From assembly GCA_963769025.1 (NCBI GenBank), contig CAVYKI010000012.1, positions 96,001-160,000 of the forward strand: a stretch of 64,000 bases of DNA, in the 5' to 3' direction. Below, in pieces: positions 47,759 through 64,000 of the stretch; the first letter of the stretch is position 1, and each line of letters begins with the position of its first letter. Both the position numbers and the translations under genes were made by a program. Source of the DNA: an uncultured Verrucomicrobiae bacterium (GTDB taxonomy: Bacteria > Verrucomicrobiota > Verrucomicrobiia > Chthoniobacterales > Chthoniobacteraceae). The notes beneath the pieces were generated by a model. That model was not told where the DNA came from, ran no database searches, and saw nothing but the letters and a program-made list of their open reading frames with translations.

Positions 47759-47815
47759 GCGCGCGAGCATCCGGGCTTGCCCGCCGCGCGCGCGGCTCAC
47801 ACATTCCGCGCCCTC

Positions 47816-49113
47816 ATGATTGATCGATACACGCTGCCCGAGATGGCGGCCATCTGGACAGAGCAACGCAAATACGAAATCTGGCTCGAAATCGAGACGC
47901 TCGCCTGCGAGGCGCAGGCGGAACTCGGCCACATCCCGAAGGAGGACGCGCAGACCATCCGCGCGAAGGCGAAATTCGAACTCGCCGAGATCATGGAGAT
48001 CGAAAAGCGCACGAACCATGACGTGATCGCATTCCTCGAAAACGTCGCGAGCTACGTCGGCCCCGCGTGCCGCTGGATGCACCAGGGCATGACGAGCAGC
48101 GACGTGCTCGACACCACGCTCGCCGTGCAGACCGCGCAGGCGTCGGACATTTTGCTGAAGGATCTCCGGGAACTGCGCGAGGTGATCGCGAAGCGCGCGA
48201 AGGAATTCAAGATGACGCCGATGATCGGCCGCAGCCACGGCATCCACGCGGAGCCGATCACGTTCGGGCTGAAGCTCGCGCTGATGTACGATGAATTCGG
48301 CCGCGCGCTGGAGCGGCTGGAGCAGGTGCAGCCGCGCATCCGCGTGGGGAAAATCAGCGGCGCAGTCGGCACGCACGCGCATCTCGATCCGCACGTGGAA
48401 TCGCAAGGTCTGCAAGACGCTCGGCCTCACCCCCGCGACGCTCGCGCACGCAGGTCGTGCAGCGCGACCGGCACGCGGAATTCCACACCGTGCTCGCGCT
48501 CATCGCGTCTTCGATCGATCGCTGGGCCACGGAGTTCCGGCACCTGCAACGCACCGAGGTGCTCGAAGTGGAGGAATACTTTTCCGCAGGGCAGAAGGGC
48601 AGCTCGGCGATGCCGCACAAGCGCAATCCGATCACCGGCGAAAAGCTCAGCGGCCTCGCGCGCCTCGTCCGCAGCAACGCGGTCGCTGCGCTGGAGAATG
48701 TGGCGCTGTGGCACGAGCGCGACATCAGCCATTCGTCTGTCGAGCGCGTCATTTTCCCCGACTCGTGCATTCTCGTGAACTACATGCTCACGCTGCTGCG
48801 CAAGCTCGTGGACCGGCTCATCGTGTATCCCGAGAACATGAAGCGGAACCTCGAGATCACGCGCGGCCTCTACCATTCGCAGACGATCCTGCTGAAGCTC
48901 ACCGAGCGCGGTCTCGAACGGAAGACCGCCTATGAAGCCGTCCAGCGCGCCGCGATGAAGACGTGGCAGGGCGACAAGCCGCTGCTCGAAAACCTCTTCG
49001 CCGAGGAGGAAATCACCGCGAAGATTCCGCCGGATGAAATCGCGAAGCTGTGCTCGCTGGACCACCACTTCCGATGGGTGGAAGACACCTTCCGCCGCCT
49101 CGGATTGGCGTAG
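47816..49113 (+). CDS. purB: Adenylosuccinate lyase (two 1-bp insertions near 48401 and 48447, probably sequencing errors)
   Basis: MIDRY, HDVIAF, GMTSSDV, GRSHGIHAEP, GKISGAVG, signature GSSAMPHKRNP and WHERDISHSSVER. Confidence 0.95.
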
Positions 49114-51353: not shown

Positions 51354-52487
51354 TCAGAGGCTGAACTCCGCCCAAACCGCCGCGTGATCGCTCGCGGCGT
51401 CCTTGTCGCCTGTCACCGTCGGAAACCGCGTGTTCGCCGGCGTGTTCCTGCGGAACACGCCGCGGCGCTCGATCTCCACCTTGCTGCACGCGGTGAATAG
51501 CGGTTTCGAGACGAGCAAATAATCGATCGGCTGGTTCGCGGCGGCATCGTCGCGGTGCGTCCAGCGATCCGCACCAGTGGGCAGTTTCTCGAAAACACTC
51601 CGCAGATTCGGCATGCCGGCGAGCAGCGGGGCGAGCGAGGCCGAAGCCGGCAGCTCATTGAAATCCCCGCACACCGCCACGAGATCCTTCGTCAGGTCGA
51701 ACCGTCCCAGGATTTTCTTCACCTGCGCCGACTCGCGCTCCCGCTTCCGGTCATTGCCCGCCTTGCTCCCAAAGCCGCGGCTCTTGAAATGATTGCACAG
51801 CACCCACAGCACCTTTCCACCCGGCAATTGCACGGCAAACTCCGCGCAGTCGCGCGAAAACCGCGCCTTCGATGCCACGTTCGGCTGCGCCGCAGACTTC
51901 GGCAGCGCGTCATCGACATGGCTGCGCATGTCGCCGATGGCAAAATGGCTGAACAGCCCCACATCGATCCCTCGCGGGTCATTCCCATCGATCAGCATCT
52001 TGTGCCGGTAGCGCTTTGCCGGCTTGAGGAACCGCTCGTTGAATTCCATCAACGCCGGACGGCTCTCCACCTCCACGGCGCAGAGCACATCCGCATTCAC
52101 CGCCTCGATCACCCGCGCCGTGTTCTCGATCGCAGCCGTCGAGACCAGTTCCCGCTCCAGTTCGATCCATCCGGCCCAATCTGCGCGCCCGCCCGCCTTG
52201 ATCTGCGAGATATTCGTCGTCCCGAGCGGCGTGCCCTGCCGCTGCGAATACAGCTTTCCGCGCACCTGCTGGATGAAGAACGGCCGCTTCGCCTCATTCT
52301 CCACATCATGCTTCGTGAGCAGAGCCATGATGTCCGCCTTATCCTGCGCGGCATAAACCGGCTTCGCAAAAAGCTCATTCAGCCGCTGCACGTCCTCCAG
52401 AATCGCCTTCGCAGCCGCAGTGGTCGCGAGGTTCAGGACCTTCGCCCGACGGAAAAGATTTTGGACGTTGTAGGTGGCGAGGCGCAT
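51354..52487 (-). CDS. Endonuclease/exonuclease/phosphatase (EEP) family protein
   Basis: ATYNVQNLF, VEVE, GNDPRGIDV, NHFKS, GDFNE, IDY and SDH. The ATG overlaps the upstream TGA (TGATG). Confidence 0.9.
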   Translation of the reverse strand: MRLATYNVQNLFRRAKVLNLATTAAAKAILEDVQRLNELFAKPVYAAQDKADIMALLTKHDVENEAKRPFFIQQVRGKLYSQRQGTPLGTTNISQIKAGGRADWAGWIELERELVSTAAIENTARVIEAVNADVLCAVEVESRPALMEFNERFLKPAKRYRHKMLIDGNDPRGIDVGLFSHFAIGDMRSHVDDALPKSAAQPNVASKARFSRDCAEFAVQLPGGKVLWVLCNHFKSRGFGSKAGNDRKRERESAQVKKILGRFDLTKDLVAVCGDFNELPASASLAPLLAGMPNLRSVFEKLPTGADRWTHRDDAAANQPIDYLLVSKPLFTACSKVEIERRGVFRRNTPANTRFPTVTGDKDAASDHAAVWAEFSL

Positions 52488-55400
52488 CAGGACGGGCGCG
52501 GTTTCAGCACGAAATTCGGAGACCCGTAGTGGAGATAGTCGGCCCAGTCGGCGCTGCCGGATTCCTGCACAACGCGTCGCGCGCCAGTCACGCAAGGCCC
52601 GAGCGGCTGGCCGGCGAGCAGACCTTGGTAAAAGGATTCGGCGAATTTGCATGCCGGGCCGTCGCCGACGGGCCAGTAGGTCCCGAGGAAATTTGCGACG
52701 CCGCCACGCATGAACGCCTCGGCCACGCTGACGAGACCGAGCAGCCGATCGGGATGGGACTTCGCGGTTCCACCCCGCGCCACACCGCGGACACGCGCGG
52801 ATTCGCAGGCATTGAAAAATACAAGCAAGGGGAGCTGGCCCAGCCCTGCAACGTCGGCTCCGCTGAGGACTGACGGATTGTCCGGGCTCGGCGGCGCGCA
52901 GATGAGGCCGCTTTGCGCGGGCGCATCCGGGTCGAAAAACGCGTGTCCGGCGTAGTGGACCACGTCGAACTCGCCGGAACGGAAGTGATCGAGCAGCCGC
53001 GGGCGCGTCGCTTCGGCCTCCCGCAGCTCGGTCAGGACAATGTCGCGCCGTTCCGTGAACAGCGCGCGGATGCGTTCCCCTTCCTCGACGGCGCCTTCGA
53101 GGTCGCCGGTGGGATTGACGACGAGGAGCACGCGGAGCTTTTCATCGCGGCGCCGGGCCTCGACCCATTTTGCCACGGAAAGATTCGCCGCGGCGTACTG
53201 CCGCGAGAGGCCCGGTCCGCGCGCTGGCGCATACTCGCCCGCAGGTCCGAGACGGAGGGTTTCCCACGGGATGCGCGAGGCTTCCTCGTCGTGAACAAGG
53301 ATGATCGGCGTCTCGCGGTCATTGAGAAGCAGGTCGCGATGGGTCGGATGGAGCAGCAGCTCGGCGATGCGTTCGCCGCTTTGTCCGACCTCGTCGGCGC
53401 TGACATCGTCGCCCCAACTCGTCGGCTTCACCGGGTCGAGGATGGACTGCAGTTCGGCCTTGGACACCGTCTGGACTTCACGAGGCGTGGCGGATCGGCC
53501 GCCCGGGGAAATGAGCGTGGTTTCAAATTTCAAGGCGGCGGTCTCGTGCGTGACACGCACAAACAGGTAGGCCGGATCGCGCCCCATCTTGCCCGCATTG
53601 GCAGCGGAGACCGTGCGGTGCTCCAGGATGGCGGGCGGCGGCAGCGTGCGTTCGTCGAGCCGCACCTGCACGGAGTCGAAGAGCGGCGTGGGCAGCAGAT
53701 CGAGCAGGGCTTGGCGCAGCGTCGCGAAACGGACCGGGTCCGCCTCGCAGAGAGTGACGCGGCGGAAACGCCGGCGGTGGGGCGAGTCGGCGAGGCCGCG
53801 CAGGAAACCCCGCATGAAGTGCGTGAGCCCCTGGCGCATGAGCGCCGGGCCCGCCTCGGCGAGATTGCCAAAGAGCAGCGTCGCAAACTCCGAAACACCC
53901 GCGCCGAGCAGAGTGCGCAGGGTGTTCTCCGCGACCAGTTCGAGCGTGTCCCACGCGAGTTCGCCGGAGGCTTTCAGGAAGCTGTCCATCGGGCCGAGGC
54001 CGGCGACAGCCACGATGTCGCTGCGCAGAGGATGGCGCCCGGTCGGCAGGACGAACATCCCACCCACGTTCGAGCTAAACATGCGGCGCTGGATCATATC
54101 GGCGAGCACGCCGTCCATCTTCGCATCCACGGCCTGGCCGGCGCGGCCGAGATCCATGTTTTGGAATCTGGCGAGGACGATGGCCTCGGAATCGACCTCC
54201 GCGATGTCGCCTTGGGCAAGCTCGATCTCGAGGTATAGCTGGGTCTCCCGCGAGACGACGAAACCATGCAGCGGAGCCGCTTCGGCCGGTGCGGGCGCCG
54301 CTCCGGCGGCGGGCAGCGCGACGCCGAGGCCGAGGGGCGCATCGAGCACCCCGCGCAGGCGGGCCGCGGCTTCGCTCACGCTCGAGGGGCCCGGGATGGA
54401 ACGTACGCGCGCTGCGCTGCGCGAGCGGCTGCCCATCTGTTCGTCAGTCACCCAATCCACCGGCGCGGGCCGCACGATGGGGAGCGCGTTGGGGAGCGCG
54501 GTGACGGCCTCGCCTTTGAAAAGCTGGACGACCGCCTGCTTCACGGAGTCATTCATCGTCAGCGTTCCGTGGCCGTGCTTCACGTAGAAGACCTGTGCAT
54601 CCTTCAACTCCGGAAGCCGCGCGGAGGCGAGCGGCACGGTGCCATCGCCCACAAAACTGCGCTGGTAGCGCATGCCGCCCCCGGGGATGCGCTCGCCGCG
54701 GACAATCGTCTCCTGGTCGATCCCGGCGATGAGCCGCCAGTCGGCCGGAGCCGGCGCGAGCAGCGAGCCGACCGACGCGGCTTCCGCGAGCACGTCGGCA
54801 ACGACCCGCGGCGATGCGGGCCAGAGGGAAGGATCGTGCCAGTTGAGGCCATTGGCGATCGGCCCGAGCGGAAGCATTTGCGCGAGCCCCGGAAAGGTGG
54901 CGAACACCTTCTCGGTAAGCTCGACATTGCTGTCCGCCAGGTCGAGCCCGCTGATTTTTGAGGCGAGATCATGCACGCCACGCAGGGCTAGCACGGGCGA
55001 GTAGGAGCCGAAATTCGGCGTGCCCATCATCACCACCGTGCCGATGTTCGCCGCGCCTTGCTTGAGCGCAGCCCTGGCGACGAGCCCGCCCATGCTGTGG
55101 GCGGCGAGATGCACCTTGCCCGGGCCGAGCGACGCGAGCCTGGCCTTCAGTGCGGCGCCGAGTTCACGCAGGTTCAGCCGCCAGTCGAACGGAAAATAGT
55201 CCGCATCGAAGCCCGCAGCCTGAAGCGTCAGCTTCAAGCCCAGATAGACCAGCGGGAACGGATCGAGCGCGATGATCTTTTTCTTCGAGGGGATGGCCAG
55301 CAGTTTGAGCCGGCCGATGAGCACATCGAGCGGATCGATCCACAGGGTGTCGTGGAAGAACGAGAGGATCGGCCGCCTGTATCCGAGCGTGGAGCCCATG

Positions 55401-55666
55401 ATGCCCGGCAGCACGAGCGCCTTGGGCCGCACGGCGCGCGTCCCGCGCGTGGTGGACTGCGCCGCACGCGCCAGGCGCAGCATCTCCGGGAGCTGCGGGC
55501 CAAAGTAGAGTTCCATCTCCGCATCGACCTCGCCGGCAGCCAGTCGCCGCTCGATCTCGTCGATCGTCATGGTGAATATGCTCGGGGGCGGCGGCGGTGC
55601 GGACCGCGGCTTTCGCCCGCGGACACGCTTGGGAGCACGACCGGTGGGTTTGCGTCGGGTCTTCAT
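52487..55666 (-). CDS. Alpha/beta-hydrolase (LCAT/PGAP1-like lipase) + macro/M17-N-like domain + CHAT protease fusion
   Basis: PGIMGS, FDWRL, AHSMGG, GTPNFGS and GDGTVP; then QGDIAEVDSEAIV...VAGLG; then IPWETL, VVHYAGH, FFNACES and GTYWPVGD. Confidence 0.88.
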   Translation of the reverse strand: MKTRRKPTGRAPKRVRGRKPRSAPPPPPSIFTMTIDEIERRLAAGEVDAEMELYFGPQLPEMLRLARAAQSTTRGTRAVRPKALVLPGIMGSTLGYRRPILSFFHDTLWIDPLDVLIGRLKLLAIPSKKKIIALDPFPLVYLGLKLTLQAAGFDADYFPFDWRLNLRELGAALKARLASLGPGKVHLAAHSMGGLVARAALKQGAANIGTVVMMGTPNFGSYSPVLALRGVHDLASKISGLDLADSNVELTEKVFATFPGLAQMLPLGPIANGLNWHDPSLWPASPRVVADVLAEAASVGSLLAPAPADWRLIAGIDQETIVRGERIPGGGMRYQRSFVGDGTVPLASARLPELKDAQVFYVKHGHGTLTMNDSVKQAVVQLFKGEAVTALPNALPIVRPAPVDWVTDEQMGSRSRSAARVRSIPGPSSVSEAAARLRGVLDAPLGLGVALPAAGAAPAPAEAAPLHGFVVSRETQLYLEIELAQGDIAEVDSEAIVLARFQNMDLGRAGQAVDAKMDGVLADMIQRRMFSSNVGGMFVLPTGRHPLRSDIVAVAGLGPMDSFLKASGELAWDTLELVAENTLRTLLGAGVSEFATLLFGNLAEAGPALMRQGLTHFMRGFLRGLADSPHRRRFRRVTLCEADPVRFATLRQALLDLLPTPLFDSVQVRLDERTLPPPAILEHRTVSAANAGKMGRDPAYLFVRVTHETAALKFETTLISPGGRSATPREVQTVSKAELQSILDPVKPTSWGDDVSADEVGQSGERIAELLLHPTHRDLLLNDRETPIILVHDEEASRIPWETLRLGPAGEYAPARGPGLSRQYAAANLSVAKWVEARRRDEKLRVLLVVNPTGDLEGAVEEGERIRALFTERRDIVLTELREAEATRPRLLDHFRSGEFDVVHYAGHAFFDPDAPAQSGLICAPPSPDNPSVLSGADVAGLGQLPLLVFFNACESARVRGVARGGTAKSHPDRLLGLVSVAEAFMRGGVANFLGTYWPVGDGPACKFAESFYQGLLAGQPLGPCVTGARRVVQESGSADWADYLHYGSPNFVLKPRPS

Positions 55667-55679
55667 GACAGGGGCGGAG

Positions 55680-57035
55680 CTAGGTGTTTTCGAGCAGCAC
55701 GTAGGGGATCACCACCCGCTTCCACTTGTCGCCGTGATACCGGCGGGCGAGATCGGTCGCGAGTGCGATGAAGCTGCCCCATTGGTCCGGATGCAGCGTC
55801 TGGCAACCGAGGCTCGACGTGCCGTGGTAGCTGCCGCAATGGATGTTGATTCCGAAATTTCCGGTGTCCTTGTAGTTCTCCCTCTTGCCGTCGCGCGTGA
55901 CGGTCACCTTCCCCGCACGCTGGCAGAGCGCGAGGTACTTGCCGTTGTGGATGTCGAACCGATGGACGAACCACGCACCGGGATCGAGCGAGGCGATGCC
56001 CTTGGTGTCCTCCGCGAAGCCCTGCCCCGGCCGGATTCTCGATGGGTCCGTGTTTCCATTGAAGTTCGCAAAGCTGTCCGGCGAATCGATGAAGATCGCG
56101 TCGTCGTACATCCCGCGATCGTTCACCCCCGGCGCGCCCATGGTGTCACGGTAGTAGCCGCGGATGCCGACGACGATGAGCGGATGCGTTGCGCGATCGA
56201 TGGCGAATGGCGCGAGCTTCGCCGAGAGTTCCTGCTGGCTCATGTTCGGCTTCGCGCCCGGCAGCTCGCCGCCGCGCGTGCGCACAGGCGCCGTTCCTCG
56301 GGAACGGGTTGCGAGCAGCACCGCATCGGGTTCTGGACGTTTCGATTTCTTGCGGGCTTTCGGGCGCCTGGCTTTGCCGCGACTCCGCGGCGCGCCCATC
56401 GCGTCGATCTCCACCTGGGCTGCGGGCGTGAATTGCTTCACGTTGTCGCGGTAGTTCCGCGCAGCCTGTCCGCCGCCATTGTACGCGCGCACCGCCTCCC
56501 ATAGGTTTCCCCCGTTGCTCCGGTAATTGCCTTTGAGTTCGCCGATGACGCGGCGCAGGCACACCTCGAAGTCGTACCACTGCCGGAACCGGAAGTACGC
56601 CTCGTCCTCGATCACGAATTGCAGGTCGTATTGGAAGATGCCGTAGCCTTTGTAGATCCAGTGCTTCGGACCCATCCCGCGCATTGCGCGCGTGGCATTG
56701 GCCTCCTCGACGAGCATTTCGCCAAAGGCGCGATCGTAACGGTCGTAGAACGCCTCGGTGTTCCGTGGAAACGCACTGCGGCTCGTGCCGGCAACCTCGC
56801 CGGACGCATCGAGGACGCAACGCGCGACGACTTCGTCCGGCGAAATTTTGCTGCCCGGCTTGGTGACCAGCGGCAACCAAAAATAGGCTGTCTCCTGGCA
56901 GACGATCCCGCAGAGCAGCGCGGGGCTGAATGGCGTCCCATCCGTCGCGGCGCGGATGCTTCCGCCGAAGTGGGTCATGAGCCAGTTGGTGGCTTTGCGG
57001 GCACTGTTGAGGGAGATAGGCAGGTCTTCGGGCAT
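55680..57035 (-). CDS. Two-domain putative cell-wall enzyme: lysozyme/SLT-like N-domain + YkuD/L,D-transpeptidase-like C-domain
   Basis: CQET, GYGIFQYD and AVRAYNGG; basic linker; GINIH...SSLGCQ. No signal peptide. Confidence 0.65.
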   Translation of the reverse strand: MPEDLPISLNSARKATNWLMTHFGGSIRAATDGTPFSPALLCGIVCQETAYFWLPLVTKPGSKISPDEVVARCVLDASGEVAGTSRSAFPRNTEAFYDRYDRAFGEMLVEEANATRAMRGMGPKHWIYKGYGIFQYDLQFVIEDEAYFRFRQWYDFEVCLRRVIGELKGNYRSNGGNLWEAVRAYNGGGQAARNYRDNVKQFTPAAQVEIDAMGAPRSRGKARRPKARKKSKRPEPDAVLLATRSRGTAPVRTRGGELPGAKPNMSQQELSAKLAPFAIDRATHPLIVVGIRGYYRDTMGAPGVNDRGMYDDAIFIDSPDSFANFNGNTDPSRIRPGQGFAEDTKGIASLDPGAWFVHRFDIHNGKYLALCQRAGKVTVTRDGKRENYKDTGNFGINIHCGSYHGTSSLGCQTLHPDQWGSFIALATDLARRYHGDKWKRVVIPYVLLENT

Positions 57036-57139
57036 GGTTTGGATGGGTTGGGTTGGTCAGCGGAAAAGGCGCAGTCAGGCATTGGCCGCCGCGAATCCAC
57101 GGACCGGGTCGGTTCCGCGACGCGGCGAACCGAATTGCT

Positions 57140-58018
57140 TCATCGGGATGCGGTGGTGGCCGGACGCTCCTTCGAGCCGGCCTTCGGTCTGGCGTTCCTG
57201 ATCTCGAGGGTGAAAGGCGGTTCGTTCTCGAACGCCTTGTTCGGCGCGCCGATCACGAAGTAGTTGGGAGTCTGATCCCTCGACATGCGCGCGGCGATAT
57301 GGTCGCGGAAGTTCCTGTAGTTCCCACGAAACCGGCCGTCGGCCCAGACCTGCTTCAAGGCGCCGGTGAAAGCCCCGTTGAAGTCGCCATCCCGCGAGAG
57401 CTGCCGGTCCTGACAGCCGGAAATCAGAAGGACGGTGGCTTTGACATCCTGCTGTTCCGCTCCGGTCACACGTCGCTGGATTGCATCGTATCGGGTCTTG
57501 TTTTTTTCATAGACCTCCTTTGCCTTGGCCGGCGGGAGGAGGCGCGCCCGCCCTTTGGGCATTCGCTCGAACGCGCGCGTCACAGAGCCGCTGTGGCAGC
57601 TGTCCGACAGGACGAGAATGCGCACCCCCGCCCTGAACCGCGCATACAGCGCGGCGAGTTCGTCATCGATCAGTTCCCGATCAAAAAGACACCATGTCTC
57701 GTCCATGCCGTCCGCCGTATCGCCGAAGCGCCCTTCATCGCCATTCGTATCGGGCACCTGCCCGCCGTGGCCGGAGTAGGTGAGGAAGAAAGTGTCGCCG
57801 CTTTTCAACGACTTCGCCGCACTCAGTATCGCCTGCTGCACCGCCTTGGCAGTGACTTGCTTTCGCAACAGCGTCCGCGGCTTGAAACCGCAGGATTTCG
57901 CGAGCGCCGTCATGTCTTTCGCGTCAGCTTCGCAGGCGAATAGTTCACCGTCCCAGCCCGCGTAGTGCTTGGGATCGACATAGTTGAGCCCGAGGTGGAG
58001 TGAGATTCCTATTTTCAT
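57140..58018 (-). CDS. Caspase family (peptidase C14, metacaspase-like) protein
   Basis: TYSGHGGQ (catalytic His), SDSCHSG (catalytic Cys), DETWCLFD, ISGCQDRQ and GAFT. Confidence 0.92.
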   Translation of the reverse strand: MKIGISLHLGLNYVDPKHYAGWDGELFACEADAKDMTALAKSCGFKPRTLLRKQVTAKAVQQAILSAAKSLKSGDTFFLTYSGHGGQVPDTNGDEGRFGDTADGMDETWCLFDRELIDDELAALYARFRAGVRILVLSDSCHSGSVTRAFERMPKGRARLLPPAKAKEVYEKNKTRYDAIQRRVTGAEQQDVKATVLLISGCQDRQLSRDGDFNGAFTGALKQVWADGRFRGNYRNFRDHIAARMSRDQTPNYFVIGAPNKAFENEPPFTLEIRNARPKAGSKERPATTASR

Positions 58019-58240: not shown

Positions 58241-59341
58241 CTAATTGAAATCGATCGAGAAACCGGCGCCGATGATGTTTCCCTGTTTGTAAGTCGGAGC
58301 CAGCTCGCCCACGGTGTATTTGATGGCAAAACTGGTTTTCGCACCGGGTTTGTCCAAGAGCAGGTGAAGGTATTTCGCCTCAAAGAAAGGGTGGAAGCCC
58401 CGGTCGGAACCATCAATGTCGTAGTGGCCGTTGAATACAAATGCGATGCGATCGTTCTTAAAGATGCCGGTCTCCCATTCCGCTCGGATTGCGATCCGGT
58501 TCTTGTCATTACCACTTGCCGCGCCCGAGACCTTGCGGGCGGTGACATAGCCATAGCCCGCGGATACATCAAGGTGGCGCGCGTTATTGGTATTCTGTTG
58601 GCCAAAGCGGAGCACCTTGAAGGGAGCATCAAGGATCGGATTCAGGAAGCTGGTGGTGGCCGCTAGGGACGCTCCGACCGCGAGATCCTGATCCTTGCCA
58701 TCCTGCGTGGTCTCCCACTTTGCGCTGGCTTTCGCATAGATCCACAATGGGGACTGAACTTGTGCCGCCAGGTTTCGGCCTAGTGGAATGTCAGGATTGA
58801 GTTTCCGATCGCTGCCGGTGCCCGTGCTCCAGATATTGCCGGTTGCCTGGGCGGGTGCCGGCCTCTCGAGTATCCATAGTGGGTCGAATTTCAACGCCGC
58901 CTCGGTCGTAATGCTGTCGAGTTGGTTTTTGCTCGGATCGGTGACCAAGAAACCCTCTCCCTTTAGCGATGCCTTCCATGTTCGCTCAAGGGCCGCGCTT
59001 GTCCGCGCCGCATCCGATGTCAGATTCTGTTCGAAATGGAACTTGTACTCGATTCCAAACTCACCCTTTGATGCCTCAATTGCCCGGAAATCAATCTGAA
59101 CATTCTCCGTGTCCAGAAGGCCGAATATCTTTTCCCCACGCCCATCCTCTTTGCCTTTCTCTTTCGTGCCTGCCGAGTCCTTTCCAACTCCCGTTTTCGC
59201 GGAAGCTGCGCCTTCCTCACTCGGCTCGCCTGTCTTTGGCAGCTTTCCGTCTGGAGTCCCGCCTTTCTTCGTCGGCGGATTGGCTGCGGCATCGAGAACC
59301 GCCAACGCAAGCGCTGCGATTATCGAAATGGTCGCTTTCAT
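58241..59341 (-). CDS. Secreted hypothetical protein, probable outer-membrane beta-barrel
   Basis: Signal MKATISIIAALALAVLDAAA, alternating beta-strand pattern and C-terminal GAGFSIDFN. Visibly lower GC. Confidence 0.6.
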   Translation of the reverse strand: MKATISIIAALALAVLDAAANPPTKKGGTPDGKLPKTGEPSEEGAASAKTGVGKDSAGTKEKGKEDGRGEKIFGLLDTENVQIDFRAIEASKGEFGIEYKFHFEQNLTSDAARTSAALERTWKASLKGEGFLVTDPSKNQLDSITTEAALKFDPLWILERPAPAQATGNIWSTGTGSDRKLNPDIPLGRNLAAQVQSPLWIYAKASAKWETTQDGKDQDLAVGASLAATTSFLNPILDAPFKVLRFGQQNTNNARHLDVSAGYGYVTARKVSGAASGNDKNRIAIRAEWETGIFKNDRIAFVFNGHYDIDGSDRGFHPFFEAKYLHLLLDKPGAKTSFAIKYTVGELAPTYKQGNIIGAGFSIDFN

Positions 59342-59368
59342 TGAGGGCGGATAGGTTTGCATCCGGGT

Positions 59369-59716
59369 TCAGGGGAGAAAGGGTGGGAACACCGCCTTCT
59401 TGGCCCAGTTGGCAGCCACCTTGGAGTTTTTGACGTCGTCATCTGCTAGTTCAGAGAGGACGTTGCTCATGCTCAAAGTTACCCCCAAGGAAGCGAGCAC
59501 ACGGCTGAAATTGTAGGCAAATCTCTGCTTGCTGCGGTTACGCACCTCGGAATTCTCCCCCCAGCGAAGGTTGCCGACATTGCTCTCCAGAAAATTTTCA
59601 AACCCGCTGTCTGTCTCGGGATAAGGATTCACATCATCGAGAGGGTTATCGCTCACTCCGAAGTAGAGGGACTCCATCTTTCGGGTTTTTTGATCCAAGT
59701 TAGGCTGTGTTGGCAT
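59369..59716 (-). CDS. Small acidic hypothetical protein (115 aa)
   Basis: ATG-initiated open frame in AT-richer DNA, co-oriented and 27 bp upstream of the next gene. Confidence 0.6.
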   Translation of the reverse strand: MPTQPNLDQKTRKMESLYFGVSDNPLDDVNPYPETDSGFENFLESNVGNLRWGENSEVRNRSKQRFAYNFSRVLASLGVTLSMSNVLSELADDDVKNSKVAANWAKKAVFPPFLP

Positions 59717-62375: not shown

Positions 62376-62544
62376 TCATTCTTAAACGAGACGCGGAACT
62401 TCAGAAGGCTCGCGAGGTGGTGAAGGAGATCATCGGGTGAAACCGAAAATGAAATTCACCACCCATACTGCCGCCCGCGTCATCCCCGAAAACTCGTGGG
62501 TCGCGCCAAAGGGCTGCGCCGGCTATGTATTGTTCTCAGACCTC

Positions 62545-64000
62545 ATGACCCGTTTCGTTTTCCGCCTCTCAGCCATCCTCGTCGCCAGCCTCGGCCTGGC
62601 CGGTGCCGTCCGCGCAGCCGAGCCGTTTGAGGCCTTCCTGGAGAAGCACTGCATCCGCTGTCATGGCCCCAAGAAGGAGAAGGGCGACTTGCGGATCGAC
62701 CGGCTCTCGCGCGATTTCAAGTTGGGCGCGGATACGCATCACTGGGCGGAGGTGATCGAGCAGGTCAACTCCGGCGAGATGCCTCCGAAGAAGGAGAAGC
62801 AGCCGACGCAGGAGGAGATCGCGGCGTTCGTCACGAGTCTCGACTCGCGGCTCAAGGAGGGCCGGGCGGCGCGGATGGCGGCGCGGCCGGCGGTGTCGCA
62901 TTATCGGCTGAGCCGGAAGGAGTATCAGAACACGGTCTATGACCTGCTCGGCGTGCGCTACGATCCGGCCAAGCCGGGGGAGCTGAACGAAGACACGCTG
63001 TGGCACGGTTTCGAGCGCATCGGGTCGGAGCTGTCGCTCTCGCCGTCGCATGTCGATCGCTATTACCGCGCGGCGGAGACTCGTGCTCGACCGCGCCTTT
63101 CCCGCCGCGTCCGGCGAGGCTCGCAAAGTCCGCAAGACCGCGGCCGAGCTGCGTTACGGCGGCGGGAAGACCAGCAGGAGGCGCTGGACCGCTTCGGCAT
63201 CAAGCGGCCGCTGCGTTATCTCCTCTTTCCCGGCACCGTCCAGAACGCGCTCTCACCCAACTGGTTCGGAAAGACGGGGCCGGAGCACAGCGGGCTCTAC
63301 AAAGTCCGCATCCAGGCCAGCGGAATCCGCCCGCCCGGCGGCCAGCCCGCGCACTTGAGCATCGGCAAGCGGACCGGCGAGGAGACGGTGGATGGCCTCA
63401 TCGAGTTCGACCTCACGGCACCGGAGGACAAGTCCGCAGGTTTATGAGTTCGAGGTGTTTCTCGAGATGCCCGCGACGCTGGACTTCTGCGTGGTGGCCA
63501 CCGATGTGGTGGACCGAAGGAGCGGCGCGGCCTTCCGCAATGCGCTCGGCAGCCGGGGCGGATATATTTTCACGCACAGCAGCGAGACCCTGCTCCTGAA
63601 CCCGAACGCCCCGCAGATGTTCGATGACAAGGGGAACGGCCTCTTCTCGACGGTGCTCCTCGATTGGATCGAATGGGAAGGACCGCTGGAGACGGACGCG
63701 GAAAAGTCCCGGCGCACGGGTCTGGTGCCGCCCGATGACGCGACGCCCGAGGTGGTCGCGGAGCATCTGCAACGCTTCGCCGAACGCGCCTGGCGGCGGC
63801 CGGTCAAGCAGGAGGAGTTGGCGGACTATCTGAAATCCTACCGCGCCGAACGCGAGGCGGGCGAAAAGACGGCCGACGCCTATCGCGTGGCGATGCAGGG
63901 CGTGCTGACCTCCCGGCACTTCCTCTACCTCGTCGAGGGCGACCCGGTGGCCCGCGAACGTCTCACCGACTGGGAACTCGCCTCGCGGCTCTCGTATTTT
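62545..64000 (+). CDS. Planctomycete cytochrome c / DUF1587-DUF1595-DUF1592 family protein (runs off window; indels near 63080, 63170, 63440)
   Basis: [46 protein letters not shown] and ELASRLSYF. Confidence 0.85.

Follow-up and report, generated by a model that had tools for sequence, protein, structure and literature searches.

Cleavage at Arg-Gly as a switch for a bacterial hydrolase is already published. LcCaspase activates the alpha/beta-hydrolase LcHydrolase at two Arg-Gly sites (Evans et al., 10.1101/2025.11.14.688446), and caspase-hydrolase pairs had been predicted earlier (Kaur et al., PMC7159879, PMC8195603). In type III-B CRISPR, SAVED-CHAT activates the caspase PCaspase (Steens et al., 10.1101/2023.06.23.546230). 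In type IV Thoeris, the caspase cleaves behind Arg and slightly favours small residues around the cut (10.1101/2024.10.24.620036), metacaspases cut after Arg or Lys (PMC5756287), and self-cleavage in trans has been proposed for the CHAT protease DdvA (PMC11506125). To our knowledge, the substrates of most bacterial caspase and CHAT proteases are unknown. Here, a locus of an uncultured Verrucomicrobiae bacterium was analyzed in a window of 64,000 nucleotides (GCA_963769025.1, contig CAVYKI010000012.1, positions 96,001 to 160,000). The locus encodes a C14 caspase (P0003), a two-domain cell-wall enzyme (P0002) and a fusion of a lipase, a macro-like domain and a CHAT protease (P0001). In alignments, an Arg-Gly/Ser motif is conserved at 4–8 residues before the lipase fold, and such a motif also flanks the muramidase-like domain on either side. 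On balance, the conserved words are probably cut sites, at which the CHAT protease would free the lipase and the caspase would split the cell-wall enzyme, with products that would damage the membrane and peptidoglycan.

Compared by description, the locus shares with the LcCaspase/LcHydrolase module an alpha/beta-hydrolase held (here presumably) as a zymogen, an adjoining clan-CD protease and a conserved Arg-Gly at the (here candidate) cut sites. LcHydrolase, however, is a stand-alone protein of ~33 kDa that is always beside its caspase and is cut twice inside the fold, with both outer pieces needed and the protease often fused to a sensor. P0001 is instead a 1059-residue protein that joins an LCAT-type lipase to a macro-like domain and to a CHAT of its own, with the candidate sites flanking the fold; moreover, the second candidate substrate is a muramidase-like/YkuD-like enzyme. 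Neither CHAT nor LCAT is mentioned in the main text of Evans et al. (10.1101/2025.11.14.688446). As in the SAVED-CHAT/PCaspase system, a single locus encodes a CHAT protease together with a C14 protein that stands alone. P0003 has a basic residue seven positions past the catalytic Cys (Cys+7), the position that would correspond to Arg153 of PCaspase, where that caspase is reportedly cut. Unlike in SAVED-CHAT, the macro-like domain and lipase stand in place of SAVED, and genomes do not consistently pair the CHAT with the caspase. No SAVED domain was found in P0001 by Pfam, and the PADLOC SAVED_CHAT match covered only amino acids (aa) 885–1048 (E 2e-4). [quoted passage not shown] The CHAT domain shares its fold and His-Cys dyad with separase, Csx29 and DdvA, without the TPR region and without the separase Asp that binds the P1 Arg. 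The lipase has the fold and Ser-Asp-His triad of LCAT/LPLA2, yet it is bacterial, lacks a signal peptide and carries a helical pro-segment and a protease fusion. The mature LPLA2 chain begins a few residues ahead of the same first strand. The system would work like the published protease-effector modules but falls outside their defining architectures. Literature searches, with figures, bioRxiv supplements and subscription journals outside their view, returned no paper on a lipase-macro-CHAT fusion or a shared tag.

Results

Excess and Conservation of the Arginine Motifs in the Lipase Fusion

A preliminary description of the window had proposed seven Arg-Gly/Arg-Ser motifs in inter-domain linkers as a cleavage code for the caspase. 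All seven were located on the minus strand where it had placed them (Table 1), and its domain labels were upheld by Pfam and by AlphaFold2 (AF2)/Foldseek, with "macro" denoting the macro-like N-terminal domain of M17 aminopeptidases. The pattern [TSV]R[GS] occurred seven times in P0001 against 2.3 expected (shuffle P 0.008) and five times in P0002 against 0.95 (shuffle P 0.002), with no occurrence in P0003. Two of the seven in P0001 lay outside linkers (R323, within the core of the lipase, and R16, within the N-terminal tail), and over their whole lengths neither P0001 nor P0002 showed an excess of plain RG (P 0.15 and P 0.21, respectively). Across 3122 crudely called open reading frames of the genome, RG stood at 0.89x and [TSV]R[GS] at 0.90x of expectation, and P0002 and P0001 ranked 2nd and 10th for the latter. 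Hence, the excess is not an effect of high guanine-cytosine (GC) content, a caveat raised in the preliminary description; it largely failed as an explanation for the motif before the lipase (site 1) and for the cell-wall linker and stood for the weaker copies. Neighbouring genes within the homolog loci were at 0.89x of expectation.

The P0001 family was aligned in 119 rows, which dereplication at 70% identity, with one frameshifted row dropped, reduced to 63; each linker was shuffled on its own composition. The lipase triad S191/D341/H366 and CHAT H908 were present in 119/119 rows and C954 in 118/119. At site 1, RG was found in 59/63 sequences versus 25.6 after shuffling, GR in three and KG in one. 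The family consensus was R-x-V-R-G-G-P-R-V, and the linker varied in length among homologs. In the AF2 model of P0001, whose mean predicted local distance difference test (pLDDT) score was 88, the site formed the end of the pro-segment helix (49–75), 4–8 residues ahead of the first lipase strand. A separase-like ExxR motif was sought at this site and was not seen in the alignment. Site 1 (Arg74/Arg77) is the best-supported candidate cut.

The sites between the lipase and the macro-like domain were less clear. Arg399 was conserved in 67/96 distant homologs, and RG around it occurred in 17/63 versus 7.0 shuffled, with GR in 1/63. The SRSRS window had RG in 30/63 versus 15.7 shuffled, but GR in 32/63; it is without direction because the two were equally common. 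Within it, Arg416 aligned with the family R-G and was present in 17/21 close and 61/96 distant homologs, with Gly as the following residue in 78/96. The model showed a helix up to residue 419 and low pLDDT over 421–425. Conservation of this cluster (site 2) as a putative site is moderate to weak. In the macro–CHAT linker, RG was found in 23/63 versus 7.4 shuffled, and Arg684 was retained in 19/21 close homologs. A control Pro/Ala linker showed no excess (4/63 vs 5.7). Past the CHAT Cys954, Arg958 and Arg960 belonged to the invariant catalytic motif (R960 119/119, G961 48/119), and the following ARGG was unconserved: Arg964 occurred in 14/96 distant homologs and the loop 963–967 was disordered. 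The expectation that the motifs persist in otherwise variable linkers was therefore borne out at site 1 and in the cell-wall linker, where RG and not GR was kept and Lys was not accepted, weakly so at the lipase–macro cluster, and not at the second RG past the CHAT Cys.

The Cell-Wall Enzyme and Other Joints

E48, H399 and C411 were invariant in the P0002 family. Searches of P0002 against Pfam and PDB sequences gave nothing above cut-off. In the Atlas comparison, the C-terminal domain matched unnamed phage clusters at 0.95 and Tlde1/YkuD at under 0.8, the latter a lead only. The nearest Atlas clusters of the YkuD-like domain (55680–56250) consisted of 70–89% phage proteins, and stand-alone YkuD-like copies were seen among phage-like genes in L145–L147.

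In the cell-wall linker, [TSV]R[GS] was present in 20/37 dereplicated homologs versus 6.2 shuffled, and GR in 10/37. Arg254 (RTRGG) was the best conserved position, with the family form T-R-G/S-G-x-x-P, and the PRSRG and TRSRG copies varied among homologs. About 14 P0002 homologs were fused to a caspase, in both orders. Among the readable caspase fusions, [TSVA]R[GSAD] stood no more than 25 residues ahead of where the muramidase domain starts in 10/11 versus 3.8 shuffled, a looser pattern that was picked after inspection in a scan with 31/119 rows unparsable; the strict [TSV]R[GS] gave 4/11 versus 1.0. Among distant muramidase homologs whose Pro/Ala linkers contain no Arg, the short N-terminal peptide held [TSV]R[GS] in 10–11/14 (T-R-G in 10, V-R-G in 1), and the T-R-G stood immediately ahead of the domain start. 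P0002 itself starts at the muramidase domain, without a pro-peptide.

The word was also found ahead of other folds. In genome G277, T-R-G preceded the first lipase strand of a caspase-SGNH lipase fusion by five residues. The N-terminal linkers of a DUF7379 lipase-CHAT protein in this genome held several words of the forms T-R-S and R-R-G. In G1000, two C14 genes adjoined the gene for a YkuD-like/muramidase protein whose linker contained T-R-S. In G936, the muramidase homolog had no such Arg, and no caspase was present among the open reading frames scanned in its 20 kb (n = 1). Judged from these comparisons, the motif recurs at fusion joints of independent origin. As a separate observation, the island in G277 (contig C50; L127:8282-18001, L144:1171-8654) held a cell-wall enzyme, a lipase-less macro-CHAT protein, a CHAT-STAND-TPR protein and a caspase beside the two lipase fusions, with T-R-G, T-R-S and G-R-R-G words in linkers. 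In G394, an astacin/M10 metallopeptidase gene (L128:4090-4872) lay immediately upstream of the gene for the cell-wall enzyme.

The Caspase and Its Cys+7 Arginine

P0003 matched Pfam PF00656 (E 1.9e-22, 80.5 bits against a cut-off of 21.4) and the GSU0716 family (PDB 3bij; E 2e-107). The His84/Cys141 dyad was invariant in 49 rows. The acidic S1 residues Cys30/Asp33/Asp139 aligned with the metacaspase positions, which in TbMCA2 are Cys92/Asp95/Asp211 (PMC4357240). Because these S1 residues are kept in a GSU0716-family member, it can soundly be inferred that P0003 cuts after Arg or Lys. SVTRA, listed as a site in the preliminary description, did not match (T/S/V)R(G/S), and its Arg148 proved to be the family-wide basic residue at Cys+7. 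This position was R in 73 and K in 4 of 77 dereplicated homologs, followed by a variable residue, and was Arg/Lys in 138/138 stored sequences bearing the motif, including caspases without a known CHAT partner. GSU0716 has Lys there, and Yca1 and AtMC4 have Asp. Arg148 is a candidate for the activation cut of the caspase itself.

Candidate Processing Proteases

The co-occurrence of the lipase fusion with C14 genes was surveyed. No C14 match was obtained with the caspase profile in L001–L079 (flanks up to 8–9 kb, many shorter), and only 12 loci were matched, all belonging to distant (25–35%) lipase-CHAT relatives; in G394, a C14 gene adjoined the lipase-CHAT fusion. PF00656 was matched in 11/26 genomes carrying the fused gene. 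Site-1 RG was retained in 12/14 readable C14-negative genomes versus 10/11 C14-positive ones, and two C14-negative genomes that were 99% complete kept V-R-G-G. The motif was found in 4/24 CHAT-less lipase orthologs versus 142/150 fused proteins in the first set. Among representatives at 50% identity (111/151 parsed), the counts were 7/26 (shuffle 5.3) for CHAT-less and 41/63 (shuffle 23.8) for fused proteins. On a tree from which six short representatives (probable fragments) and contig-truncated and near-duplicate loci were left out, CHAT was lost at least 7 times, and among 7 independent pairs 4.3 changed the same way versus 0.2 the opposite way. The attribution of all cuts to the caspase finds no support for the lipase fusion because the motif was kept in 12/14 C14-negative genomes and faded in CHAT-less orthologs; for the lipase, the fused CHAT is the likelier cutter. 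For the cell-wall enzyme, in many homologs of which a C14 protein is fused or adjacent, the caspase is plausible as the cutter. Indirect evidence points to six genomes shared by the P0002 and P0003 homolog sets.

Related architectures were recorded alongside. A stand-alone lipase of ~420 aa without macro-like or CHAT domains and with a decayed pre-domain motif was present in L044, L047, L050, L052–L055, L059, L061–L069 and others, mostly of Steroidobacteraceae and related proteobacterial metagenome-assembled genomes (MAGs), with several origins. For the CHAT-less lipases, a separately encoded (split) CHAT partner was sought in 29 genomes; this query found none (best E 1.6e-19, 26% identity). 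The converse form, macro-like plus CHAT without lipase, occurred in L006, L022, L029, L033, L132 and L133, the L022 copy following a STAND-WD40 gene. Proteins of ~1900 aa with the order DUF7379-lipase/LCAT-lipase/CHAT/TPR-S were seen in L083, L084, L090, L092, L094, L078 and L080, several directly downstream of C14. A C25 (gingipain-like, clan CD) peptidase was encoded directly downstream of the lipase-macro-CHAT gene in L003:1102-2745 and L004:11148-12791. L134:5942-9529 encoded a TIR-SLOG-macro-like-CHAT fusion, with nucleotide-signalling domains where the lipase would be, hinting that the macro-like domain may sense an NAD+-derived ligand.

Discussion

Proposed Mechanism and Evidence Against It

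In the proposed mechanism, the locus would be a conflict or cell-death locus of sporadic distribution, and clan-CD cysteine proteases would use the conserved subset of motifs as P1-Arg processing sites, cutting between small residue–Arg and Gly/Ser. A cut at Arg74/Arg77 would remove the helical pro-segment from the LCAT-type lipase, and cuts at Arg399/Arg416 and in the macro–CHAT linker would release it. These sites would most likely be cut by the CHAT of P0001 itself, acting in cis or between the chains of a dimer, with the macro-like domain as its gate. The C14 caspase, which travels together with P0002, would split that enzyme at Arg254. The outcome would probably be an attack on membrane lipid and peptidoglycan, ending in lysis or programmed death.

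Several observations weigh against this mechanism. The pattern [TSV]R[GS] was chosen post hoc, once it had been seen, and the shuffles ignore shared ancestry. Site 1 was ordered in the model (pLDDT ~88, helix end) and the Gly turn ahead of the first lipase strand was kept even in distant relatives, so part of the site-1 signal may be structural. In P0001 itself, the family R-G-G had drifted to TRG-TRA. Most C14-negative genomes were MAGs of unknown completeness, and 2/4 of the highly complete ones (100% and 93% complete) had no RG at site 1. The co-loss of motif and CHAT on the tree was in the right direction but not significant (median p 0.125), and plain RG gave 3.1 versus 1.0 (p 0.625). Characterised CHAT proteases also cut after Met or Leu (PMC11506125; PMC9729208). 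In the CHAT of P0001, the P1-Arg Asp of separase (human Asp2070, or the equivalent Asp2151) was absent, and position 1006 was K/E/L/C in the family; this rests on a weak hidden Markov model alignment (E ~0.07). The invariant Asp1002 was rejected for this role, as the numbering placed it on human Asp2066. The invariant Glu862, which aligned with caspase Asp33, could serve instead.

Alternative Explanations

That the C14 caspase processes all of the listed sites in both partners, as first proposed, now appears rather improbable. In its favour, one operon holds the genome's sole C14 and sole CHAT, the S1 pocket of P0003 is of the Arg/Lys type, C14 neighbours accompany distant lipase-CHAT relatives in 12 loci and in G394, and the published Arg-Gly cutter is a caspase (10.1101/2025.11.14.688446). 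The close and mid-range relatives of P0001, however, gave no nearby C14 match (L001–L079), and often none was found in the genome, and yet they kept the motif, which was lost in CHAT-less lipases. A two-step cascade, in which the CHAT cuts the caspase at Arg148 and the active caspase then cuts the Arg-Gly/Ser sites, is unlikely, if less so than the caspase alone, and is compatible with part of the mechanism proposed above. A CHAT-to-caspase cascade is published (10.1101/2023.06.23.546230; PCaspase Cys146), and the Arg148 position is almost always Arg. The same basic residue, however, is found family-wide, including where no CHAT partner is known, and the caspase and the lipase-CHAT fusion seldom co-occurred.

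Equally doubtful is the view that the Arg-rich segments are not cut and act as docking or pseudosubstrate segments, or as helix-cap or turn elements, binding the CHAT, the macro-like domain or an anionic membrane. It would fit the order of site 1, the placement of R958/R960 in the invariant catalytic motif and the missing separase-type S1 Asp, and motif loss in CHAT-less orthologs fits a lost docking partner as well as a lost protease. Against this, the LCAT lipase, muramidase and SGNH lipase folds, which are unrelated and have unrelated upstream sequences, were all preceded by the same small-Arg-Gly/Ser word, the site-1 linker varied in length, and Lys did not substitute at the motif. Compositional noise in basic, high-GC linkers is very improbable as a general account and concerns mainly the weaker copies, such as the ARGG past the CHAT Cys and the variable PRSRG/TRSRG; the lack of plain RG enrichment in either whole protein and the equality of RG and GR in the lipase–macro window agree with it. 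The genome-wide depletion of the motif, the top-10 ranks of P0001 and P0002, the low value in neighbouring genes, and the directional conservation against composition-preserving shuffles, with none in the control linker, speak against it. As an account of site 1 and of the cell-wall linker, composition has largely been refuted; for the weaker copies it stands.

Genomic Context

The minus-strand gene run comprised P0003, P0002, P0001 and an EEP-fold enzyme. The start ATG of the EEP gene overlaps the P0001 stop (TGATG), so this gene probably belongs to the same operon. P0003 was the sole C14 (PF00656) match and P0001 the sole CHAT match of the genome, which is 83% complete. Among genomes of the class, 10/400 had relatives of P0001 and 9/400 had relatives of P0002, with none in 8 searched genomes of the same family; this patchy distribution would be typical of conflict genes. 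Close P0003 orthologs at E 1e-60 were not found in 400 genomes of the phylum. Close homologs bearing names were from Verrucomicrobia. The search for lipase-macro-CHAT homologs gave 785 matches, and the one-gene architecture was widespread.

Table 1. Features of the caspase, cell-wall enzyme and lipase fusion locus. Nucleotide positions refer to the window; domains are given in amino acids.
Feature	Location	Strand	Remarks
C14 caspase P0003	57140..58018	minus	292 aa; metacaspase-like, GSU0716/3bij family; without sensor domain
SVTRA	57572..57586	minus	P0003 aa 145-149; Arg148 (57575-57577) = Cys141+7
Two-domain cell-wall enzyme P0002	55680..57035	minus	451 aa; muramidase-like + YkuD-like
Lysozyme/SLT-like N-domain	P0002 aa ~5-212	minus	SLT below cut-off, E 0.013; seen in 9/48 members
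Cell-wall linker	56268..56390	minus	P0002 aa 216-256; basic, inter-domain
PRSRG	56376..56390	minus	P0002 R219
TRSRG	56295..56309	minus	P0002 R244/R246
RTRGG	56268..56282	minus	P0002 R254 (56274-56276)
YkuD/Tlde1-like C-domain	P0002 aa ~262-451	minus	His399, Cys411
Lipase/macro-like/CHAT fusion P0001	52487..55666	minus	1059 aa
Basic tail and helical pro-segment	P0001 aa 35-75 (pro-segment)	minus	AF2 model
STTRGTR (site 1)	55436..55456	minus	P0001 aa 71-77; Arg74 = 55445-55447, Arg77 = 55436-55438
LCAT/LPLA2-type lipase	P0001 aa ~81-390	minus	PF02450 above cut-off; Foldseek 4x90/4x96; Ser191/Asp341/His366
Arg399, conserved linker Arg beyond the preliminary list	54470..54472	minus	Family P-x-R-R-G/A
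SRSRSAARVRS (site 2 cluster)	54398..54430	minus	P0001 aa 413-423; Arg416 = 54419-54421
M17-N macro-like domain	P0001 aa ~467-674	minus	Pfam; Foldseek PepA
Macro–CHAT linker, beyond the preliminary list	53579..53644	minus	P0001 aa 675-696; H-R-T (Arg684)
CHAT protease	P0001 aa ~699-1059	minus	PF12770, 105 bits vs cut-off 24; His908/Cys954; Foldseek separase/Csx29
RVRGVARGG	52769..52795	minus	P0001 aa 958-966, four residues past Cys954
EEP-fold phosphoesterase/nuclease	51354..52487	minus	Pfam PF03372, E 1.3e-11

Upstream of P0003, the stretch 58241–59716 held a 373-aa signal-peptide-like protein without a Pfam match and a 115-aa open reading frame, and was lower in GC (55% vs ~65%). Lys/Arg/Ala-rich low-complexity tails were present at the N-terminus of P0001 (55567–55666) and the C-terminus of P0003 (57143–57200), and similar basic tails begin many homologs of P0001, P0002 and P0003. 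At 47777–49113 (adenylosuccinate-lyase-like) and 62437–64000 (Planctomycete-type cytochrome), each labelled by reading translations, a gene seemed to be split over two frames, possibly by frameshifts or assembly errors.

Significance

A wider reading is tentative and rather doubtful, although we rate it above each of the alternatives. A portable small-Arg-Gly/Ser "release tag" would be common to caspase/CHAT islands and re-acquired by effectors as they join, namely LCAT, SGNH and DUF7379 lipases, the muramidase and the YkuD enzyme. P0001 would be a single-chain sensor-protease-effector, in which the macro-like domain gates a self-cleaving, Arg-specific CHAT that releases the lipase of its own chain. 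This CHAT may also switch on the caspase at Arg148, coupling the destruction of membrane and cell wall. If true, the tag would predict substrates of these proteases genome-wide. If such a tag accompanies the protease and is readable in front of effector folds that are unrelated, it would give exact cut-site predictions and allow substrates to be found computationally. Furthermore, a self-activating lipase-macro-CHAT protein, if real, would bring a self-contained design, and cell-wall enzymes as well, within the logic of protease-effector defence.

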